Translations under genes and position numbers: made by a program | NCBI GenBank assembly: GCA_964587655.1 | Contig: CAZPMT010000001.1 | Location: 17,459 to 81,458, forward strand | Length of the DNA stretch: 64,000 nt | Origin: an uncultured Nitrospiraceae bacterium | GTDB lineage: Bacteria > Hydrogenedentota > Hydrogenedentia > Hydrogenedentales > SLHB01 | Direction of reading: 5' to 3' | In this document: positions 9,634-43,040 of the stretch, piece after piece | How positions within the stretch are numbered: the first letter of the stretch is position 1 | How the letters are laid out: every line of letters starts with the position of its first letter | The notes under the pieces: generated by a model | What the model saw: only the letters and a program-made list of their open reading frames with translations | Told to the model about the DNA's origin: nothing | Databases searched by the model: none

Positions 9634-9990
9634 CTGCCCTCCCATTTGCCACGCAGAACCCGGAATCGTCCATTCGCTTTCGATCACGAGTGCGATAATG
9701 GTAAAGAGTTTGTGCAGTCCCCGCAAATCCGATCGCGCGCGGGCAAGCCGATAGCATCGAACGCGCCGCCAGAGGAACGTCTCCACTTTGCTCATGAAAC
9801 TGTCGCTCGCCAGAGGACACCCCGTCTGCGTGCGAATCGAGCCATGACCAAGACGATAACATATTGCCCGCCCCCAGCCAGATAAAGGGTAACTGTTCTT
9901 GACACGGCCTTAAGGAATGTCGCACCATGATTCTATTGCTTTGACCGCCTGAAGGGAGATGGCGGATAGTCAGGGCTGCGGGGATAGATC

Positions 9991-12900
9991 ATGCCTGCAT
10001 TGTTGGACGAGTATATATTCACAGGCGTAACGGGCAATGCGGCGTGGGCCGCCATCAAGACGGCGTGGGAAGTCGCCACTAAGAAGTCATGGGAACAGAT
10101 CTATCTCGACGCGTTCCCGAAGGCGCTTGCCGCTTCGAAGGAACAACCCAGGAAGTACACTGATGGCGCTGAGCCTTTATTGAATGGCGCCGCCCTGCAG
10201 CGCGCCATCACACGCGCGGCGGCGTCACCGCTTGCCGACCACGCTCTCACCGAGTTGACCGGGGATGCACTCGTGAAACATCTCGGGGCCGTCATGGCCG
10301 AGGAGCGGGTAATCGAGTTCGAGGGGAACAACCTGGCGGAGGAAGGATACGCACAGGTAGTGCGCAACCTCGTCCGCTCTGCCCATGCCGTCTTCTGGGA
10401 CGGTGTCGTGAAGAACGAGACGGCCTTCCGCAATGGCGTGTTCTTGGAGTTCCAGGCGAACCGCGCCCAACTACAAGACATCAAAGACGCCCTCTCTAAG
10501 CTCAGCCTGTTGAAAGCGCTGGACGAGAAACAGGATTACCAGACACGGCTTCTCGAGCGGCAGTCGCTTTCAATGGACGAGATCAAGGGTATTGTCTTGC
10601 GCATTGAAGAGCGCCTCGCCCGGAAATCCTTCGATAGGGAACTGGACGAGGTACTGCCTCCCGCGAAGCGAGAGCCTGCGGGTGCACCGAAGTTCGAAGC
10701 CGACTTCGTTCATGCCTATCCGCTGCAAGCGAACTTCACGGGGCGGAAAACGGAACGCCAGGCGCTTCTCGACGTGAAGTATGACGTTTTCGTCAGCTAT
10801 AGCCATAAGGACAAAGAATGGGTGCACGGACGGCTATTGCCCGGTCTGGAGAGATCGGGACTGAAGGTGTGCCTTGACTTTCGGGACTTTGAGCTGGGCG
10901 TTTCAGCGGCCATCAACATGGAGCGCGCAGTGCAGCAAAGCCGGAAGACCATTCTCGTGCTTACACCGAACTGGGTCGAAAGCGAGTGGACGGAATTTGA
11001 GTCCCTGCTGATCCAGACCAAAGATCCGGCAGGCCGGCGTCAACGCATGTTGCCGGTGATGCTCGAGGAATGCAGCCTGCCTGACCGTTTGAGCATTCTG
11101 ACGTATGCGGACTTCAGAAATGAACAGGATTGGGAGTTCCAACTCGAGCGCGTGTTGCGCACACTCTGTGTTGAAAGGACAACTGCTCCGCCAAGCGATA
11201 AGCTTCCCGTAGTCCAACCCATCATCCAGCCCGATTTTGTCCATCCGTATCCGCTGCAAGCTAACTTCACGGGGCGGAAGAAGGAACGCGGCGCGCTGAC
11301 GACGTGGTTTGTCCAGCGTGAGCAGCCGGTGTATGCCGTGGTCGCCATAGGGGGTATGGGCAAGTCGGCGGTAACGTGGGTGTGGGTGTTGCAGGATCTG
11401 CTGGGGCTGCGCACATTCACGAAGGAGGCGTGCGCGGTCGAGCAGGAGAACCGTCCCGAGGGGGTGTTGTGGTGGAGCTTCTATGACAGCAAGGCACGGT
11501 TTGCGTCGTTCCTAGATCGCGCGCTGGAATACGCGAGCGGCGGGGCCGTGGACCCGCGCGGGATACCGTCGGAACACGACAAGGCGGACAAGCTCATCGA
11601 CCTGCTCGAAAAGCGCGACATCCTCCTGGTGCTCGATGGGTTTGAGCGTGAACTCCGGGCGTATGCGAGTCTGAACGCGCCATACATGGGAGACGGTGAG
11701 GAAAGACACGAGGTCACGGAACAGCGCGTGTGCGTCGACCCGCACGCGGCCTACTTCCTCCAGTGGGCGGCGTCACTGCCGTTGCGGGGCCGGATCCTGA
11801 TGACGACCCGCCTCATGCCGCGCGATCTGGAGGGGAACGACGGCAATCCACTTGACGGCTGTGCGAATAACGAACTGAAAGGCTTCGACCCGGCCGATGT
11901 GGCGGCTTTCTTCCGCGCCGAGGGCATCAAAGGAATGCCATCCGAGATCAAGGCGGCCTGCGCTCCTTACGCATACCATCCACTCGCCGTTCGGCTGTTG
12001 GCCGGGGCGATCATCCGAGACAAACGCAAACCGCGGGACATTGAGACCGCCAAGCGGCACGTGGTCACGGCGGAACTGAAGGGCAAGGACAAGCATCACA
12101 TCCTGCAGGTGGCTTACGATGAATTGGCCGCGAAGCGCCGCAAAATCCTGAGCCAGATCGCCGCGTTCCGCAATCCCATGACCTTCGAAACCTTGGCGGC
12201 CGTGCTGCCCGTGAGCGGCGCACACGAACTGGAAGTCATCCTGGACGAGTTGGTCGAGCGCGGCCTGCTGCTCTGCAACGACGGCCTATACGACCTGCAT
12301 CCCGTCGTGCGGCAATATGCCTACGAACGGCTGACGGACAAGGAAGGCGTCCACACGCGCTTGCGCGACCATTTCAGCGCCGTGCCCATGCCGCAGGACA
12401 CGGAGAAGGTCAAATGCATCGAAAACCTCGACCCCGTGATCGAGCTGTACCACCACACGGTCCGGGCGGGGCAGTTCGACGAGGCCTGTGACGTATTCTA
12501 CGTGCGTCTCCAGGACGTTCTGTACTACCGCTTCGGGGCGTACGATCGCTGCATTGAACTCTTGTGCGCACTGTTCCCGGAGGGAGAGCCTTTGGTCAAA
12601 GACGGCCAGGCCAAGGTACCACGACTGACGAAGGAATCCGACCAAGCCTGGGCGCTGAACGCCCTTGCCTGCTGTTGCAGTGCGTCCGGCCAACCCCGGC
12701 GGGCTTTGCCGCTGTTTGAGCTACAGAACAAGCTCCGGGATGACGCAAAGGACGAGATGAATCTTGCCATTGGCCTGGAAAACTTGGCCTGTATGGCGCA
12801 ACTCCACCTCGGCCAACTGGGTGCTGCCGAAGAGAACCTCCGTCGGAGCATCGCCTTGTCTCGGGAGATTAGGGACGCGCTCGGGGTGGCTGACGCGTGC

Positions 12901-13578
12901 CAGAATTTGGGGCTGTTGCTGGCATGCCTGGGAGGGTTTGGTGAGAGCGAGACAGAATTGGACGCGGCGGTGCGGGGCTTCAAGGAGCAAGAAAAGACGC
13001 AGGGCGAGGGCATCGTTGAGTGCAGCCGCGCCCTGCGGGCCATCATCATGGGAGATGCCCAAGCCGCGTTGGCAGCCGCCCGTCACGCGCTGGAGTTGTG
13101 GCACAAGACGGCAAGAGAGAGATTCCGCTACGAGCGCGACCGCGTGCGGGTCGAGTGGTTGGTAGGCTGGGCGCTGACGGCCCTGGCGGAAGAGCGGCCG
13201 GGGGACGTGGCCAGTCTCCTTGCCGAGGCCGAACAGCATCTCACCGAGGCACTGACCCGTTGCCGGAACATCAACATGGTCGATCACGAGCCGGACATTC
13301 TCCTGGCTTGGGCGCGTTGGCATTTCGCGAAAGGGGACGCGGTTCGCGCGAGCCAGTGGGCTGCGGAGGCCCTATTCATCGCCGACCGGTGCGAGTACCG
13401 GCTGAAGCAGGCCGACATCCACAACTTCCTTGCGCGGCTTGCGCTTGATGCCGGTGACAAGGCCGCAGCACGAAGCGAAGCCGGGATCGCGAAGGAACGC
13501 GCTTGGTGCGACGGCCCACCGCATTGTTACAAACCCGCCCTCGATGAAGCCGAACGCCTGTTGAAAGAGATCGGGTAA
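9991..13578 (+). CDS. TIR-domain / STAND (NB-ARC-like P-loop NTPase) / TPR-repeat protein with ~250-aa unknown N-terminal domain; candidate defense or signalling NTPase
   Basis: TIR: YDVFVSYSHKDKEWVHGRLL...; P-loop AIGGMGKSAVTW, Walker B ILLVLDGFE; C-terminal TPR-like helical repeats; an intragenic direct repeat (10702-10759 / 11233-11290) brackets the TIR. Confidence 0.8.
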   Translation: MPALLDEYIFTGVTGNAAWAAIKTAWEVATKKSWEQIYLDAFPKALAASKEQPRKYTDGAEPLLNGAALQRAITRAAASPLADHALTELTGDALVKHLGAVMAEERVIEFEGNNLAEEGYAQVVRNLVRSAHAVFWDGVVKNETAFRNGVFLEFQANRAQLQDIKDALSKLSLLKALDEKQDYQTRLLERQSLSMDEIKGIVLRIEERLARKSFDRELDEVLPPAKREPAGAPKFEADFVHAYPLQANFTGRKTERQALLDVKYDVFVSYSHKDKEWVHGRLLPGLERSGLKVCLDFRDFELGVSAAINMERAVQQSRKTILVLTPNWVESEWTEFESLLIQTKDPAGRRQRMLPVMLEECSLPDRLSILTYADFRNEQDWEFQLERVLRTLCVERTTAPPSDKLPVVQPIIQPDFVHPYPLQANFTGRKKERGALTTWFVQREQPVYAVVAIGGMGKSAVTWVWVLQDLLGLRTFTKEACAVEQENRPEGVLWWSFYDSKARFASFLDRALEYASGGAVDPRGIPSEHDKADKLIDLLEKRDILLVLDGFERELRAYASLNAPYMGDGEERHEVTEQRVCVDPHAAYFLQWAASLPLRGRILMTTRLMPRDLEGNDGNPLDGCANNELKGFDPADVAAFFRAEGIKGMPSEIKAACAPYAYHPLAVRLLAGAIIRDKRKPRDIETAKRHVVTAELKGKDKHHILQVAYDELAAKRRKILSQIAAFRNPMTFETLAAVLPVSGAHELEVILDELVERGLLLCNDGLYDLHPVVRQYAYERLTDKEGVHTRLRDHFSAVPMPQDTEKVKCIENLDPVIELYHHTVRAGQFDEACDVFYVRLQDVLYYRFGAYDRCIELLCALFPEGEPLVKDGQAKVPRLTKESDQAWALNALACCCSASGQPRRALPLFELQNKLRDDAKDEMNLAIGLENLACMAQLHLGQLGAAEENLRRSIALSREIRDALGVADACQNLGLLLACLGGFGESETELDAAVRGFKEQEKTQGEGIVECSRALRAIIMGDAQAALAAARHALELWHKTARERFRYERDRVRVEWLVGWALTALAEERPGDVASLLAEAEQHLTEALTRCRNINMVDHEPDILLAWARWHFAKGDAVRASQWAAEALFIADRCEYRLKQADIHNFLARLALDAGDKAAARSEAGIAKERAWCDGPPHCYKPALDEAERLLKEIG

Positions 13579-13624
13579 CGCTTCGGCGGCGGACGTTGCC
13601 CTGCCGTAGCGTGCTGAACGCTGG

Positions 13625-13692
13625 TGGCGCGACGTTTCCAACGTCGCGGGGTAGCTGCCAGATCGAACTGCGACGTTGGAAACGTCGCGCCA
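13625..13692. terminator. 23-bp perfect inverted repeat (TGGCGCGACGTTTCCAACGTCGC / loop 22 nt) downstream of the TIR-STAND gene and convergent with the PIN operon; stem-loop, possibly a bidirectional terminator
   Basis: arms 13625-13647 and 13670-13692 are exact reverse complements; no T-run, so a rho-independent terminator is uncertain. Confidence 0.35.
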
Positions 13693-13776
13693 CTGTGAAT
13701 AGTTTGTCAAGTTATTTTGGCGCGCCGCCTAAGCGTCAATGAACGGCGAAAACGGAGCGCGAACGCGGCGTCCTCG

Positions 13777-13968
13777 CTATTTTGCTGCGTCTTCCCGCCG
13801 CTTGGCGGCAGATTGCCACATTCTTGCCGCAGGGCTGTCGGCGGTTGCAAGCCTGTGAAGACGCTTCTGACGCTCTTCCTCCGCCGTCAATCCCTCGTAC
13901 TCATTCAGAAGCTCTGCCTGGATGCGGTTCTTCATCTCAATGCAGTCAAATGCCATTTTGTCGTTCAT
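13777..13968 (-). CDS. small (~63 aa) protein, paralog A of a 3-member family (FDC[VI]EM motif) encoded immediately downstream of nuclease genes; putative antitoxin/partner
   Basis: MNDKMAFDCIEMKNRIQAELLNEYEGL... paralogous to 32186-32383 and 30787-30963; starts 2 nt after the PIN gene stop. Confidence 0.45.
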   Translation of the reverse strand: MNDKMAFDCIEMKNRIQAELLNEYEGLTAEEERQKRLHRLATADSPAARMWQSAAKRREDAAK

Positions 13969-13970
13969 GG

Positions 13971-14432
13971 CTAGACGACCTCCTTTGGAGAACGAATCTC
14001 GACTAACGGATACCCTTGTTGAAGGTTGACCGCGTTGAAACCGCGGATCTTGTCGAGATGAACAATGTGCTTGAAGTTCCAACTTACGATCATGTCCACA
14101 CGTTCCACCGACGCGATAGCGACATGGTGCGCGTCATTGCGCGAGGCCCTTCCTACAATGCTCGCTTCAAGATAACCGTCGCGTAATGCCTCCGACTCAA
14201 ACGAGCTTTCCACCAACTCATAGGCGTGATCGGGCAAGTCTGCCAGTAAGGCCTGAATCTCGCGCGGCGCCTTGTCCAGTTCGTCCAAGACAACATCGGA
14301 AATGACAAACACGACCCTGCCTGCTCGAGCCATTTCAAAGAGCGCCGAGCTTTCCGAAGCGAATTTCCCGTCCAAACACCCTCCTACCACCGAGGTGTCT
14401 ATGTAGATGCGCTGTTTTCTCATGTGCCGCAT
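13971..14432 (-). CDS. PIN-domain ribonuclease (VapC-like toxin)
   Basis: RIYIDTSVV N-terminal PIN motif, SWNFKHIV C-terminal motif, conserved acidic residues; paralog at 32364-32843. Confidence 0.75.
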   Translation of the reverse strand: MRHMRKQRIYIDTSVVGGCLDGKFASESSALFEMARAGRVVFVISDVVLDELDKAPREIQALLADLPDHAYELVESSFESEALRDGYLEASIVGRASRNDAHHVAIASVERVDMIVSWNFKHIVHLDKIRGFNAVNLQQGYPLVEIRSPKEVV

Positions 14433-39266: not shown

Positions 39267-41258
39267 ATGGCTAAAGAAAGCCAGCCGTCCGTGCTCAATG
39301 GCGAAGAACTCGTCAAACAGGAAGTAATCACTCGAGAGGAACTGGCCAACGCCCACGCGCATGAAGCCGCTACGGGTACACCGTGGTACCGGCAGCTTCT
39401 CCAAACGAAGAAGATGAGCTTCGGCGCGCTCGAGGATATTCTGTTCCGCGAGTTCCATCCGCGCTCACTTCGTGACGAACATGCCCGCCTCGGCCAGACC
39501 CTCGTCAGTATCAAGGCAATCACTCAGAATCAGCTTACCCAAGCGTTGGCGGAACAAAGCCGCAGCGGACGGCTCTTGGGGAACATTCTCCTGGATCTTC
39601 GTCTCATAACGCGCGAGATGATGACGAAGGCCCTCGCCCGGCAGCACGGGATCGAATGTGCCGAATTAAAGAGCATGCCCAGCACCCCGGAAGCTCTCGA
39701 TTGTGTTCCTCGAAACGTGGCGCGCGACAACCTTATGTTGCCGGTCCGTATCGAGGGAGACAAACTAACCGTACTCATCCCCGACCCGCAGGTTCTGGAC
39801 CGTTTGCAGAAGGTCGGTATTCTGTTGGGTAAGCGGATTCATCCCGTCCTTACAACGGTGGAAGATATGGCGGCAGAGATTGCGCTCCGCTACGGAGGAG
39901 GTGTGAAGAGCCGCCCCGTCGAGGCGCCTCGCACGAAACCCGCAGTTCAGCAGATTACCAACGCAGCACAACCGCGACCGCCCAAGACGCCGGCACAGGC
40001 TGAATCGAAACCCCAACCAAAGGTGACCAAAATGGAAGAAACAAAACAAACAGCTTCAGAGAGTCAAGGGAAAGTCGATCTGAAACGTTTTGAGGAAATT
40101 GCGAGGGAAGCATCCGGCGTCCCGGTGATGAAACTTGTAACAACCATTATCGAAGGGGCGGTGAATTCAGGAGCAACGGACATCCACCTTGACCCGCAAG
40201 ACCCTGAAATGCGCGTAAGATACCGTATTGACGGCATTCTTCACGACATAATGAGTATTCCCGCCGAAGCGCAGAACGCGGTGATATCACGCATAAAGAT
40301 CATGAGCGACATGGATATCACCGAGACCCGGCATCCGCAGGACGGTCACATAAGCATGGAGGTGGCTAACCAAGAGTTCGATATCCGCGTCGCCACCCTC
40401 CCTACGTTTCTCGGCGAACGCGTTGTACTTCGCCTGCTTGACCAATCCACCGTGCTTTCCGGCATTAAAGACTTGGGTCTCGAATCGGATGATGAGAAGC
40501 GGCTTCGCAATATCATTGGCCAGCCATATGGAATGGTCCTTGTCACCGGGCCGACTGGGAGCGGTAAGACGACAACACTGTATGCCGCTCTTAATCAGAA
40601 GAACGTCATCACGGACAGTATTGTCACACTCGAGGATCCCATTGAGTATCAGCTCTCAGGCATAAACCAGGTCCAGATTGAATCGGACATTGACGTGACG
40701 TTCGCGACCACCCTGCGGGCAGCGTTACGACAGGATATTGATGTACTTCTTGTCGGTGAAATTCGCGACGTTGATACGGCGCGGATAGCAATTCGTGCTG
40801 CAATGACCGGGCACTTAGTGTTCAGCACGCTTCATACAAATGATGCACCCGAAGCTATCAGTACACTTAGAAACATGGGTATTCCGTCTTACCTAATCGC
40901 CAGTGCTCTTACCGCCGTTGTTGGCCAACGCCTTGTAAGAATGATTTGTCCTCATTGCAGAACGGAGTTTAAGCCCCCAAAGACGCTCCTTAAATCAGTC
41001 GGCTTACCCGAAACGACAAATGCGCTATTTCGAGGTGCAGGTTGTGAAGTTTGCTACCACACCGGATGTAAGGGTAGGACGGGCATATTTGAGATCTTAG
41101 AGGTGACACCCTCAATTCGGCGTATGATAGCAGTGGACGAATCAATAGAGAAGATAGCGCAAGCAGCCAAAGTTAAGACGCTTTCCGATCGATGCCGATT
41201 GAAGCTCAAGGAAGGTGTAGTAGCGCCTGAAGAGTTCTTCCGAACCATTAGAATGTGA
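39267..41258 (+). CDS. GspE/PilB-family type II secretion / type IV pilus assembly ATPase with N-terminal GspE_N domains and C-terminal tetracysteine motif
   Basis: Walker A LVTGPTGSGKTTTLYAAL; Asp box and His box regions; CPHCR...CEVCYHTGC zinc motif. Confidence 0.8.
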   Translation: MAKESQPSVLNGEELVKQEVITREELANAHAHEAATGTPWYRQLLQTKKMSFGALEDILFREFHPRSLRDEHARLGQTLVSIKAITQNQLTQALAEQSRSGRLLGNILLDLRLITREMMTKALARQHGIECAELKSMPSTPEALDCVPRNVARDNLMLPVRIEGDKLTVLIPDPQVLDRLQKVGILLGKRIHPVLTTVEDMAAEIALRYGGGVKSRPVEAPRTKPAVQQITNAAQPRPPKTPAQAESKPQPKVTKMEETKQTASESQGKVDLKRFEEIAREASGVPVMKLVTTIIEGAVNSGATDIHLDPQDPEMRVRYRIDGILHDIMSIPAEAQNAVISRIKIMSDMDITETRHPQDGHISMEVANQEFDIRVATLPTFLGERVVLRLLDQSTVLSGIKDLGLESDDEKRLRNIIGQPYGMVLVTGPTGSGKTTTLYAALNQKNVITDSIVTLEDPIEYQLSGINQVQIESDIDVTFATTLRAALRQDIDVLLVGEIRDVDTARIAIRAAMTGHLVFSTLHTNDAPEAISTLRNMGIPSYLIASALTAVVGQRLVRMICPHCRTEFKPPKTLLKSVGLPETTNALFRGAGCEVCYHTGCKGRTGIFEILEVTPSIRRMIAVDESIEKIAQAAKVKTLSDRCRLKLKEGVVAPEEFFRTIRM

Positions 41259-41933: not shown

Positions 41934-43040
41934 ATGAAGATACATATTCCACGTCAGGATCTTCTTGACAAGGTAAATCAGGTGAAGACGGTTGTTTCAT
42001 CTAAGTCGGCGCTCCCGATTCTCTCTCACATTCTCATGGAAACACAGGAGAGCGCCGTTCGTCTTTCGGCAACTGATTTGAAAGTGAGTATTGAGTCCGT
42101 TGCTGATTGCTCAGTTGATGAAGCAGGTTCTCTTACGGTTTCTTCTCAGCGCTTAGCGATGATTCTTGCCGAGCTTCCAAATGCTGACATTACGTTGGAA
42201 CTGGCAAAGAACAATGTTGTTACTCTTACGTGTGGAAGAATTAAGACGAAGTTGTTTAGTATGGCGCCGGAGGAATTTCCGCCACTAAGAACATTTGATA
42301 ATATCGAGCCGTTGGTATTATCGCAATCGATGCTTTGTGGTATGTTCGCAAAGACGTCTTTCGCTATATGCTCCGATCAAGCTCGCTATAACTTGACGGG
42401 GATTCTTTTCGAGATTAAAGATGGAAGATTGATTGTTGTAGCGACGGATGGGCGTCGGATGAGTCTTTGTGTGGAAACAGATGGAGTGCCAAAGGGTGTA
42501 AATGTAAAGGTTATTATTCCAGGGAAAATGGTAGCTGAACTTGAACGCCTATTGGGTAGCGATGGTGATGTCTCCGTTTATATCGATGAGTCGCAAACAG
42601 CATTCGCGTTTAATTCAGCGCGCTTGGTCACAGCCCTTATAGAAGGCAACTTTCCTAACTATGAGATGGTGGTTCCAAAAAAGCATGACAAGGAAGTATT
42701 AATAAGTACCGCTGTCTTAACAGAAGCAGTTCGTCGTACGCGGACAATGACGAACGATAAGTTTAACTCGGTGCGATTTGTTCTTGTAAGTGGTTCAATG
42801 ACGTTGAAGGTAGTCACGCCCGAAGTAGGTGAGTACGAGGAAGAAATCCCTGTCGAATATGATGGAGAAAGAGTTGAGATTGCCTTTAACCCTGATTTTG
42901 TTCTCGATATTCTTCGCCATATAGAGACGGAAATGCTCTGTCTTATTCTAAAGGATACGACAAGCCCTGGTGTCGTGAAACCATATGCCGAAGCGCCTCT
43001 TGATTCCTATGTCAATGTAATTATGCCTATTCGGCTGTAA
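41934..43040 (+). CDS. dnaN: DNA polymerase III beta subunit (sliding clamp)
   Basis: MKIHIPRQDLLDKVNQVKTVVSSKSALPILSHILMETQ... three-domain beta-clamp pattern, 368 aa; strong RBS AGGAGAAACGAGGGAG. Confidence 0.85.
   Translation: MKIHIPRQDLLDKVNQVKTVVSSKSALPILSHILMETQESAVRLSATDLKVSIESVADCSVDEAGSLTVSSQRLAMILAELPNADITLELAKNNVVTLTCGRIKTKLFSMAPEEFPPLRTFDNIEPLVLSQSMLCGMFAKTSFAICSDQARYNLTGILFEIKDGRLIVVATDGRRMSLCVETDGVPKGVNVKVIIPGKMVAELERLLGSDGDVSVYIDESQTAFAFNSARLVTALIEGNFPNYEMVVPKKHDKEVLISTAVLTEAVRRTRTMTNDKFNSVRFVLVSGSMTLKVVTPEVGEYEEEIPVEYDGERVEIAFNPDFVLDILRHIETEMLCLILKDTTSPGVVKPYAEAPLDSYVNVIMPIRL

Follow-up and report, generated by a model that had tools for sequence, protein, structure and literature searches.

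How does the gene for a receptor-type NTPase come to carry the start of its own NTPase module twice, with a complete TIR domain in between? This question is raised by a 1195-aa open reading frame (ORF) in a 64-kb stretch of contig CAZPMT010000001.1 from an uncultured Nitrospiraceae bacterium; we refer to this whole stretch of analysed DNA (64,000 nt) as the window. From the N- to the C-terminus, the ORF product reads as an N-terminal domain of about 236 residues (N-domain), a first copy of the repeated element (L1), a TIR head, a second copy (L2), a STAND NTPase and a TPR array (Table 1). We consider it probable that this is a two-headed TIR-STAND gene, in which the N-domain and the TIR domain stand in series with a vestigial fragment of the NTPase start, L1, between them, and that L1 is most likely an orphan scar of head stacking. 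STAND/NLR receptors of bacteria, fungi, plants and animals swap their N-terminal effectors, and the recombination events behind such exchanges are almost never visible. At this locus, the boundary of exchange is pinned to one 23-residue element, and the junction appears to be kept at nucleotide resolution, alongside a TIR-less relative with a single joint.

The repeated start of the NTPase module

An ORF of this length and the order TIR, STAND NTPase, TPR had been proposed in the initial annotation, and both were borne out: the ORF is present on the plus strand with an ATG start, and its product is, by domain and profile matches, a TIR, STAND (NB-ARC-like) and TPR protein. The TIR domain was recovered from Pfam as TIR_2 (PF13676, aa 266-388, E 1.4e-24, 87.3 bits against a cut-off of 28) and, also above the gathering score, as TIR (PF01582, 49.2 bits against a cut-off of 21.3), and it is matched by the ThsB, bSEFIR and PDC-S66 TIR models of PADLOC. 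Its segment PNWVESEWTEFE keeps the family consensus NW..SEWT.FE, and the catalytic Glu of TIR NADases presumably lies in the W-x-x-x-E part of this segment. At the other end of the protein, the TPR array is covered by TPR_12 of Pfam (aa 935-998) and by an AfsR-type TPR region of NCBIfam (aa 918-1155); in an AlphaFold2 (AF2) model of the full-length protein, with a mean predicted local distance difference test score (pLDDT) of 77, the array is modelled as helical repeats with pLDDT >90. The NTPase gave no significant match to Pfam NB-ARC on the query protein alone, and a PADLOC scan (E<=0.1) returned only TIR-domain models (aa 248-400), with no match for the NTPase/TPR part (aa 414-1195). We assign the NTPase to STAND nevertheless, because many homologs, at 45-50% identity, carry a precomputed PF00931 (NB-ARC) match and because the NTPase-family profile matches the STAND-TPR structure PH0952 (6mfv; E 2.2e-9) over its helical and winged-helix part. 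Moreover, residues G454, G455, G457, K458, S459, D549 and G550 are invariant or nearly so across homologs. The NTPase is under purifying selection (ratio of nonsynonymous to synonymous substitution rates, dN/dS, 0.10-0.20), while the N-domain evolves faster (0.47). The protein as a whole is a singleton in a collection of 15 billion proteins.

A repeat search of the window revealed that L1 and L2 form a direct repeat of 67 nt (10700-10766 and 11231-11297) with 84% identity. The repeat of ~58 bp reported in the initial annotation (10702-10759 and 11233-11290) is real and lies inside these 67 nt, but its near-perfect core is shorter than the 36 bp given there: it covers 32 nt (10717-10748 and 11248-11279; TATCCGCTGCAAGC[G/T]AACTTCACGGGGCGGAA), with one mismatch and exact runs of 14 and 17 nt. 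The window contains this core in L1 and L2 only, with 0 occurrences expected after shuffling, by which a chance or low-complexity repeat was ruled out. The start-to-start spacing of L1 and L2 is 531 nt, or 177 codons, and hence the copies are in frame. At the protein level, L1 (ADFVHAYPLQANFTGRKTERQAL, aa 237-259) and L2 (PDFVHPYPLQANFTGRKKERGAL, aa 414-436) share 19 of 23 residues, and the single TIR domain identified by Pfam lies between them, just as had been described.

What kind of element has been repeated is clear from the protein family. A search over 5.8 billion proteins gave 260 relatives, which align with 65-67% of the query, namely the body that stretches from L2 to the C-terminus, and differ in their N-terminal heads; among the 120 relatives listed, these heads are TIR (~60), DUF4062 (18), Mrr_cat (8) and PNP_UDP (2), as well as short hydrophobic heads and, in protein P0002, the N-domain. 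The motif PLQANFTGR..E is present exactly once, ~25 residues before the P-loop GGMGKS, in 119 of 119 homologs with at least six head types, and an L-motif hidden Markov model (HMM) run over 389 proteins found it twice in the window protein only. Similarly, the family-core HMM matches the ORF twice, with profile positions 2-23 at aa 239-260 and with the full core at aa 415-1195. Within the NFTGRKKER segment of L2 (aa 425-433), T427, G428 and R429 are invariant in 36 sequences, and the FVGRKRE…GIGKT segment of PH0952 aligns with L2 and the P-loop. We take L to be the 'hhGRExE' element of the STAND literature. L thus reads, across these alignments, as the conserved and obligatory first ~23 residues of the STAND NTPase module, not as a neutral linker, and the reading as a generic repeated linker was ruled out, the motif being single-copy in every other homolog. 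The initial annotation, which had spoken of a linker, was right in that the element marks a modular junction, yet the element itself is the N-terminus of the NTPase module. Since the motif precedes the P-loop as a single copy in every other member of the family, L2 would be the functional copy and L1 the orphan.

The heads exchange at L because L is the boundary of the module, and the L DNA does not appear to serve as a recombination site in its own right. In a synonymous-codon test on 26 non-redundant loci, in which aa-identical codon pairs in conserved columns were compared, the same-codon fraction at the L motif was 0.366 against 0.384 expected (ratio 0.95); the P-loop region gave 0.358 against 0.351 (1.02), and the remaining conserved columns 0.364 against 0.37 (0.985). 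Given that there is no synonymous excess at L, the conservation of its DNA is fully explained by protein constraint, and selection at the DNA level to keep L as a recombination site across the family was ruled out.

The same constraint bears on the similarity of L1 and L2 themselves. Against the window copies, the motif DNA at 20 further loci of the family shows 50-79% identity (all-pair mean 63%, 95th percentile 79%), and the 84% identity between L1 and L2 is partly due to protein conservation. The two copies use the same codon at 13 of 19 aa-identical codons, as compared with 8.25 expected from local codon usage (P = 0.02). The single L of a TIR-less relative on contig L002, described below, is 89.6% identical to L1 and 92.5% to L2, while any other family L reaches at most 79%. 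Both copies are, on these identities, specific to the window lineage, and the same values ruled out a donor-derived (foreign) L in copy 2. The homology of L1 to the NTPase start of L002 extends to 10776. At 10762-10779, the 7-mer CGACGTG of the NTPase start is kept at the L1 end, offset by 1 nt (GCGCT-TCT-CGACGTG as compared with GCGCT-GA-CGACGTG); we speculate that this could be a junction microhomology with a frame-restoring indel. The 7-mer is followed by GTG AAG TAT GAC, possibly a former GTG start of a TIR gene. In the AF2 model, residues 213-261, including L1, form a coil with pLDDT ~24-32, and L2 is folded into the NTPase (pLDDT ~61-80), as a strand at 415-417 and a helix at 430-441. 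The model fits a predicted role of L1 as a disordered vestigial tether, with L2 still part of the NTPase fold.

The segment between the copies aligns with TIR-headed homologs from their residue ~3-6 up to their own L. These homologs have just 3-8 residues before [YF]DVFISYSH, and in the window protein the four residues LDVK stand between the end of L1 homology and YDVFVSYSH. Considering this spacing and the short leaders of the homologs, the 5' join would lie no more than ~4 codons from where the native TIR begins (nt ~10767-10779). Hence, as judged from the alignments, what lies between the copies is a native TIR head in its entirety, beginning at about residue 3 and reaching its L. TIR domains of the subtype found in the window protein occur mostly in small two-domain proteins with named adaptors (TIR–EAD7, TIR–EAD9, EAD1–TIR and TIR–bDLD1), as seen among the TIR-search matches P0272-P0390, with P0274, P0283, P0322 and P0335 as adaptor-tagged examples.

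Table 1. Coordinates of the two-headed gene, its parts and the features next to it (nt positions refer to the window).
Feature	Position	Strand	Description
Whole gene, N-domain–L1–TIR head–L2–STAND NTPase–TPR	9991-13578	+	1195 aa, ATG start
N-domain (aa 1-236)	9991-10698	+	predicted helical globule aa 1-141, stalk helix aa 143-221, Pro/Glu-rich tail; no Pfam family
Repeat copy 1, L1 (aa 237-259)	10700-10766	+	repeats the opening ~23 residues of the NTPase module
Bracketed unique segment	10777-11230	+	TIR_2 aa 266-388 (nt 10786-11154) and spacer aa 389-413
Repeat copy 2, L2 (aa 414-436)	11231-11297	+	STAND N-terminal element FTGRKKER, 'hhGRExE'-type motif
STAND NTPase, NB-ARC-like	11299-12417	+	invariant motif columns, PF00931 in homologs, profile match to 6mfv
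Walker A, AIGGMGKS	aa 452-459, nt 11344-11367	+	conserved alignment columns
Walker B, LLVLDGFE (hhhhD[DG] form)	aa 545-552, nt 11623-11646	+	conserved alignment columns
HPLA (GLPL-like) motif; LHP (MHD-like) motif, aa 769-771	within 11299-12417	+	conserved alignment columns
C-terminal TPR sensor-like array (aa ~810-1195)	12418-13575	+	Pfam TPR_12, NCBIfam, AF2
Hairpin	13624-13693		between the convergent STAND gene and small ORF; perfect 24-nt inverted repeat, 22-nt spacer
63-aa ORF	13780-13968	−	ribosome-binding site; start almost abutting the PIN_3 gene; no family or PADLOC match
PIN_3-domain gene	13971-14432	−	E 2.6e-6; no PADLOC match

TIR-less relatives and a proposed history

TIR-less relatives, in which the initial annotation had expected to see the pre-insertion allele, do exist. 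A search with the N-domain only returned P0121, a protein of 77% aa identity encoded on contig L002. Its DNA aligns with the window over 9917-10776 (86.9% identity), 11231-11504 (89.4%) and 11555-12590 (88.6%), i.e., at 87-89% identity on both flanks of the TIR segment; it contains a single L, and a counterpart of the TIR segment is absent. L002 is also without 62 nt of the NTPase region (around window 11505-11566; L002 1043-1054, window ~11493-11566), the gap lying at a short CGTCG-type microhomology, and since this deletion shifts the frame (the gene is called as two ORFs), L002 is probably a decaying pseudogene. The second relative, P0002 (1100 aa), is intact: its N-domain matches that of the window protein (aa 1-259, 43% identity, E 6e-66) and leads via a single L into a 62%-identical NTPase-TPR body, and a TIR is absent. 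P0134 likewise shows the N-domain–L–NTPase order without a TIR. A metagenome scan gave one further N-domain fragment, L003, with 89.8% DNA identity, which ends before the junction. Among GTDB species representatives, a single-protein scan found no ortholog, and one alignment-based scan gave only L-motif family members. The homology of L003 (positions 1-822) to the window begins at 9894, ~97 nt upstream of the start codon; its upstream neighbour is the C-terminus of an FAD/NAD oxidoreductase, while that of the window gene is a GH32 gene, and the setting of the STAND gene thus varies among close relatives.

A neighbour-joining tree was built from 731 columns of the body in 118 proteins. In all 60 of its 60 bootstraps, the window protein clustered with P0002, which has an N-domain head, and P0003, which has a PNP_UDP head; a TIR-headed protein never came out as its sister, and the branching of the core tree is not ordered by head type. 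Given that P0002, P0134 and L002 are all TIR-less and that one head is the norm of the family, parsimony favours a gain in the window lineage, and we lean towards insertion of a TIR into an N-domain–L–NTPase–TPR gene. The ancestor would have resembled L002 and P0002. A whole TIR head would have been gained from a TIR-headed family member, with recombination duplicating the lineage's own L and with one join, that near the native TIR start (nt ~10767-10779), being illegitimate. Homology-facilitated illegitimate recombination, reportedly described by de Vries & Wackernagel in 2002 and Prudhomme et al. in 2002, would offer a parallel. The likeness lies in one junction within the shared L, the other at an arbitrary point, and an in-frame product; the difference is that in the window the anchor L is itself duplicated, unlike in a simple one-anchor insertion, and the mechanism is read from the product alone. 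The modular insertion or duplication scar proposed in the initial annotation therefore stands insofar as the repeat marks a modular junction, whereas its direction is a matter of weighing insertion against loss. The same applies in part to the TIR excision claimed there: removal of one 531-nt unit would indeed be in frame, but TIR-less L002 is a diverged lineage (11-13% different throughout), not a variant from the same population. Considering this divergence and the exact runs of just 14 and 17 nt, any ongoing excision between L1 and L2 would likely be rare.

The protein belongs to a large environmental family with an L–NTPase–TPR body and interchangeable heads; it is probably a cytoplasmic STAND/NLR-type ATPase and, by analogy with its family, may act as an NLR-like switch. 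A trigger would be bound by the TPR array; ATP-dependent oligomerisation of the NTPase would then gather the TIR domains, and their clustering could turn on NAD+ cleavage or signalling. The N-domain, with its putative coiled-coil stalk, may add homotypic association or recruit effectors tagged with the same domain.

The N-domain family and competing explanations

The initial annotation had listed the N-domain as unknown. This holds in that it has no match in Pfam, NCBIfam or PADLOC, but the domain is not a one-off: a profile search of 1.84 billion representatives gave 156 clusters (50% identity), 32 of them at E<1e-30. Nearly all of the 150 matches listed lie at the extreme N-terminus of proteins of 60 to 4192 aa, with a few starting at residue 54-112 or covering only the appended L motif. 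Structure prediction of the N-terminal region, proposed there as a check, gave an all-helical domain with a ~140-aa globule and a ~80-aa stalk helix, for which we found no fold match in the PDB. The N-domain directly heads STAND NTPases of the NB-ARC, NACHT and AAA_16 types. It further precedes a second head in P0142 (N-domain–PNP_UDP–NB-ARC–TPR), in P0129 and P0152 (N-domain–DUF4062–AAA_16) and in P0256 (N-domain–TIR–P-loop), and it is fused to effectors only in P0160 and P0227 (TIR), P0124 (DUF4062), P0149 (metallophosphoesterase) and P0130 and P0131 (deoxyribosyltransferase-like, Nuc_deoxyrib_tr-like). An L-HMM scan found no L remnant after the N-domain in any of these stacked or effector-only proteins, including the six P0142, P0129, P0152, P0256, P0160 and P0227, and an HMM scan of the 64-kb window found no second N-domain. 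Hence, the N-domain appears to be a widespread, unannotated N-terminal family whose distribution resembles that of an effector-associated adaptor (EAD): it is terminal and fused alternately to core NTPases and to diverse effectors, in line with the EAD principle set out by Kaur et al. (PMC8195603). With ~156 clusters, the family is a candidate for a Pfam entry. The largest of these proteins, P0235 (4192 aa), starts with the N-domain and then matches the TPR part of the family body ~20 times in a row, an extreme expansion of the sensor array.

The history need not have run from one head to two. It is possible, though clearly the less probable course, that the two-headed gene is ancestral and that homologous recombination of L1 with L2 removed the TIR in L002, leaving a hybrid L; the ancestor might in that case have arisen, for example, when a truncated N-domain–L fragment became fused in frame to a full TIR–L–NTPase–TPR paralog lying downstream, a route we hold just as tentatively. 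Deleting the 531 nt would preserve the reading frame, L002 is decaying anyway, as its frameshifting deletion indicates, and its single L has an L1-type first codon and upstream flank with L2-type codons at 2, 6, 17, 18 and 23 onward, and is slightly nearer L2 than L1 by the identities given above. The proportions of synonymous differences (pS) also fit copies that predate the lineage split, being higher for L1–L2 (0.44) than for L1–L002 (0.30) or L2–L002 (0.21), but these values rest on tiny counts of 3.5 to 7.5 synonymous differences. Moreover, the mosaic is not that of a clean single crossover, sites 3, 11 and 21 being opposite, and the distant P0002 and P0134 are TIR-less as well, which would need a second independent loss or another origin. 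The exact L1–L2 runs are also short for such an event; an identity of 14-17 nt is under the usual minimum for efficient RecA recombination.

Other explanations retain the two heads but read the repeat differently. L1 could be functional, either as a decoy or latch that docks on the NTPase in place of L2 in an inactive state, or by positioning the TIR in an oligomer. All highly conserved family positions (YPLQANFTGR..ER..L) are indeed kept in L1, outside an NTPase, and its nonsynonymous divergence from the L of L002 is low (proportion of nonsynonymous differences, pN, 0.058), but a young age explains this preservation equally well, two non-conservative changes (P242A and K254T) have already occurred, AF2 predicts L1 to be disordered and undocked, and the six stacked or effector-only proteins scanned above have no such element between N-domain and effector; we thus regard a functional L1 as improbable. 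We give still less weight to programmed or frequent switching, in which the repeats would be a recombination cassette toggling TIR-plus and TIR-minus forms and the L DNA the shuffling joint of the family. The repeats have in-frame geometry, both forms occur in nature, and heads swap exactly at L family-wide with a core tree independent of head type; however, L shows no excess synonymous conservation next to the P-loop and other columns, the repeats are just 84% identical, the TIR-less relative differs across the whole gene and represents another lineage, and excision would be irreversible without a donor. Least credible of all is an assembly artefact, i.e., a contig chimera joining two paralogous genes at the shared motif. 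The contig is of the metagenome type, the protein is a singleton, and no exact record of the gene was found; yet a collapse at the shared motif would leave a single L instead of two, the junction between L1 and the TIR (10767-10779) is in frame and lies at no repeat, both flanks are collinear with L002 at uniform identity, and exact repeats of 14-17 nt are far under assembler k-mer sizes.

Several observations weigh against our preferred reading of a TIR gained by a one-headed gene. The N-domain-headed relatives found within the family are limited to L002, P0002 and P0134, together with the L003 fragment; of these, L002 has an L that is a mosaic of L1-type and L2-type sites, and its 62-nt frameshifting deletion means that the TIR-less state could there be a secondary loss. 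A database search gave no close donor TIR, the best matches having 60-70% aa identity, and the GC content at third codon positions (GC3) of the TIR segment, 0.67 as compared with 0.73 and 0.80 in the flanks, is a weak hint of foreign origin; we considered this difference too weak to call the TIR foreign by composition. That L1 scores so low in pLDDT may be due in part to the few aligned sequences that cover it. As for the protein's proposed role, the window holds no defence-gene neighbourhood, and the N-domain has no Pfam match to an EAD or a bacterial Death-like domain (bDLD) at E<=0.1; compared by hhalign with an EAD1-TIR protein and a TIR-bDLD1 protein, it gave probabilities of only 0.8% and 0.1%, respectively (<1%), so that no relationship to EAD1 or bDLD1 could be detected. 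Neither in sequence nor in fold does the N-domain resemble named EADs.

A broader scheme would unite gain and loss, and we mention it as a rather unlikely one. Heads would be added by recombination anchored on the first 23 codons of the NTPase module and the stack later resolved by L1×L2 recombination; the window gene would be an intermediate of head exchange and L002 an outcome of the resolution. The N-domain would represent a novel class of large adaptors with a coiled-coil stalk, linking receptors with N-domain-tagged TIR, DUF4062 and phosphoesterase effectors. If true, such a stack-then-resolve cycle would let a lineage try a new effector while keeping the old head. In either direction, the locus provides a concrete, testable model for head stacking or removal.

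The gene is best placed by comparison with known receptors. Avs-type antiviral STAND NTPases were reportedly described by Gao et al. in 2022. The bacterial antiviral STAND NTPases (Avs-type/NLR-like; PMC13581612) have the same tripartite plan of effector, STAND NTPase and TPR-like sensor, with many interchangeable effectors (TIR, Mrr-type nuclease, PNP_UDP and others) on one NTPase-sensor body; clades of STAND proteins in which TPR sensors go with a wide choice of interchangeable N-terminal effectors have been described, as have EAD-fused versions (PMC13581612, the latter in the legend of Extended Data Fig. 2). The window protein differs in that PADLOC models of Avs or bNACHT miss its NTPase/TPR part and only TIR models match, that its gene has no defence-gene neighbourhood, and that it combines two stacked heads with a duplicated NTPase start. 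The family profile recovered a single solved structure, that of PH0952 from Pyrococcus horikoshii (PDB 6mfv); in PH0952, NTPase, winged helix and TPR are arranged as in the window protein, but there is no effector head, and the similarity is remote (single-sequence score E 0.04). Plant TNL receptors likewise place a TIR before an NB-ARC-type NTPase, and the HPLA and LHP motifs are present in the window protein, which, however, has a TPR instead of a leucine-rich repeat sensor, a bacterial host and an extra N-domain. EADs and bDLDs (PMC8195603, PMC7159879) are, like the N-domain, strictly terminal and all-helical, and occur on STAND NTPases or stand-alone effectors; the N-domain is larger than the Pfam EAD and bDLD models matched in the TIR relatives (62-105 profile positions). 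The locus does not represent a defence system of a new type; receptors of this sort are already documented as modular (PMC13581612, PMC8195603), and function is assigned by homology. New here are the nucleotide-level scar with a single-joint relative and the unannotated N-domain family, both of which are modest additions.

Surroundings of the gene

The neighbours of the gene encode a GFO/IDH/MocA oxidoreductase, a PP2C protein, GH32 with LamG, two amidohydrolase-like proteins and PBP1A, and dnaN lies 28 kb away. The initial annotation had placed the gene in a small defence island together with a PIN-nuclease module; this was not supported, given that the neighbours are metabolic and cell-wall genes and that PADLOC matches only the TIR of the gene itself, neither the PIN gene nor the small ORF. 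By its gene content, the locus is ordinary chromosome, not a defence island. The presence of dnaN in the window likewise implies that the window is chromosomal, possibly near the replication origin. The 63-aa ORF lies downstream of the PIN_3 gene, which is the reverse of the usual VapBC order. Each arm of the hairpin next to it is itself palindromic (GCGACGTTTCCAACGTCGC), and the RNA fold, examined over 13579-13720, reaches −78.7 kcal/mol (z −7.2). The hairpin gave no Rfam match and is probably a bidirectional terminator or an element of the REP (repetitive extragenic palindromic) type. In an Rfam scan of 9-15 kb, a sub-threshold Twister-P5 ribozyme match (13807-13856, plus strand; 20 bits, where the gathering score is 37.6; E 0.91) was taken as chance; it lies inside the antisense of the small ORF.

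Two further genes of the window are of note. At 33891-37853 (minus strand), a 1320-aa protein of unusual architecture combines six PASTA repeats and a BACON domain with a C-terminal FGE-sulfatase domain, and no NTPase was seen in it; FGE-sulfatase-like domains have been noted as STAND sensors (PMC13581612). The T2SS/T4P ATPase gene at 39267-41258 (plus strand; MshEN and T2SSE) adjoins dnaN (41934-43040, plus strand) and has a GC content of 0.53 and a GC3 of 0.57, as compared with ~0.61 and 0.72-0.78 for the rest of the window.

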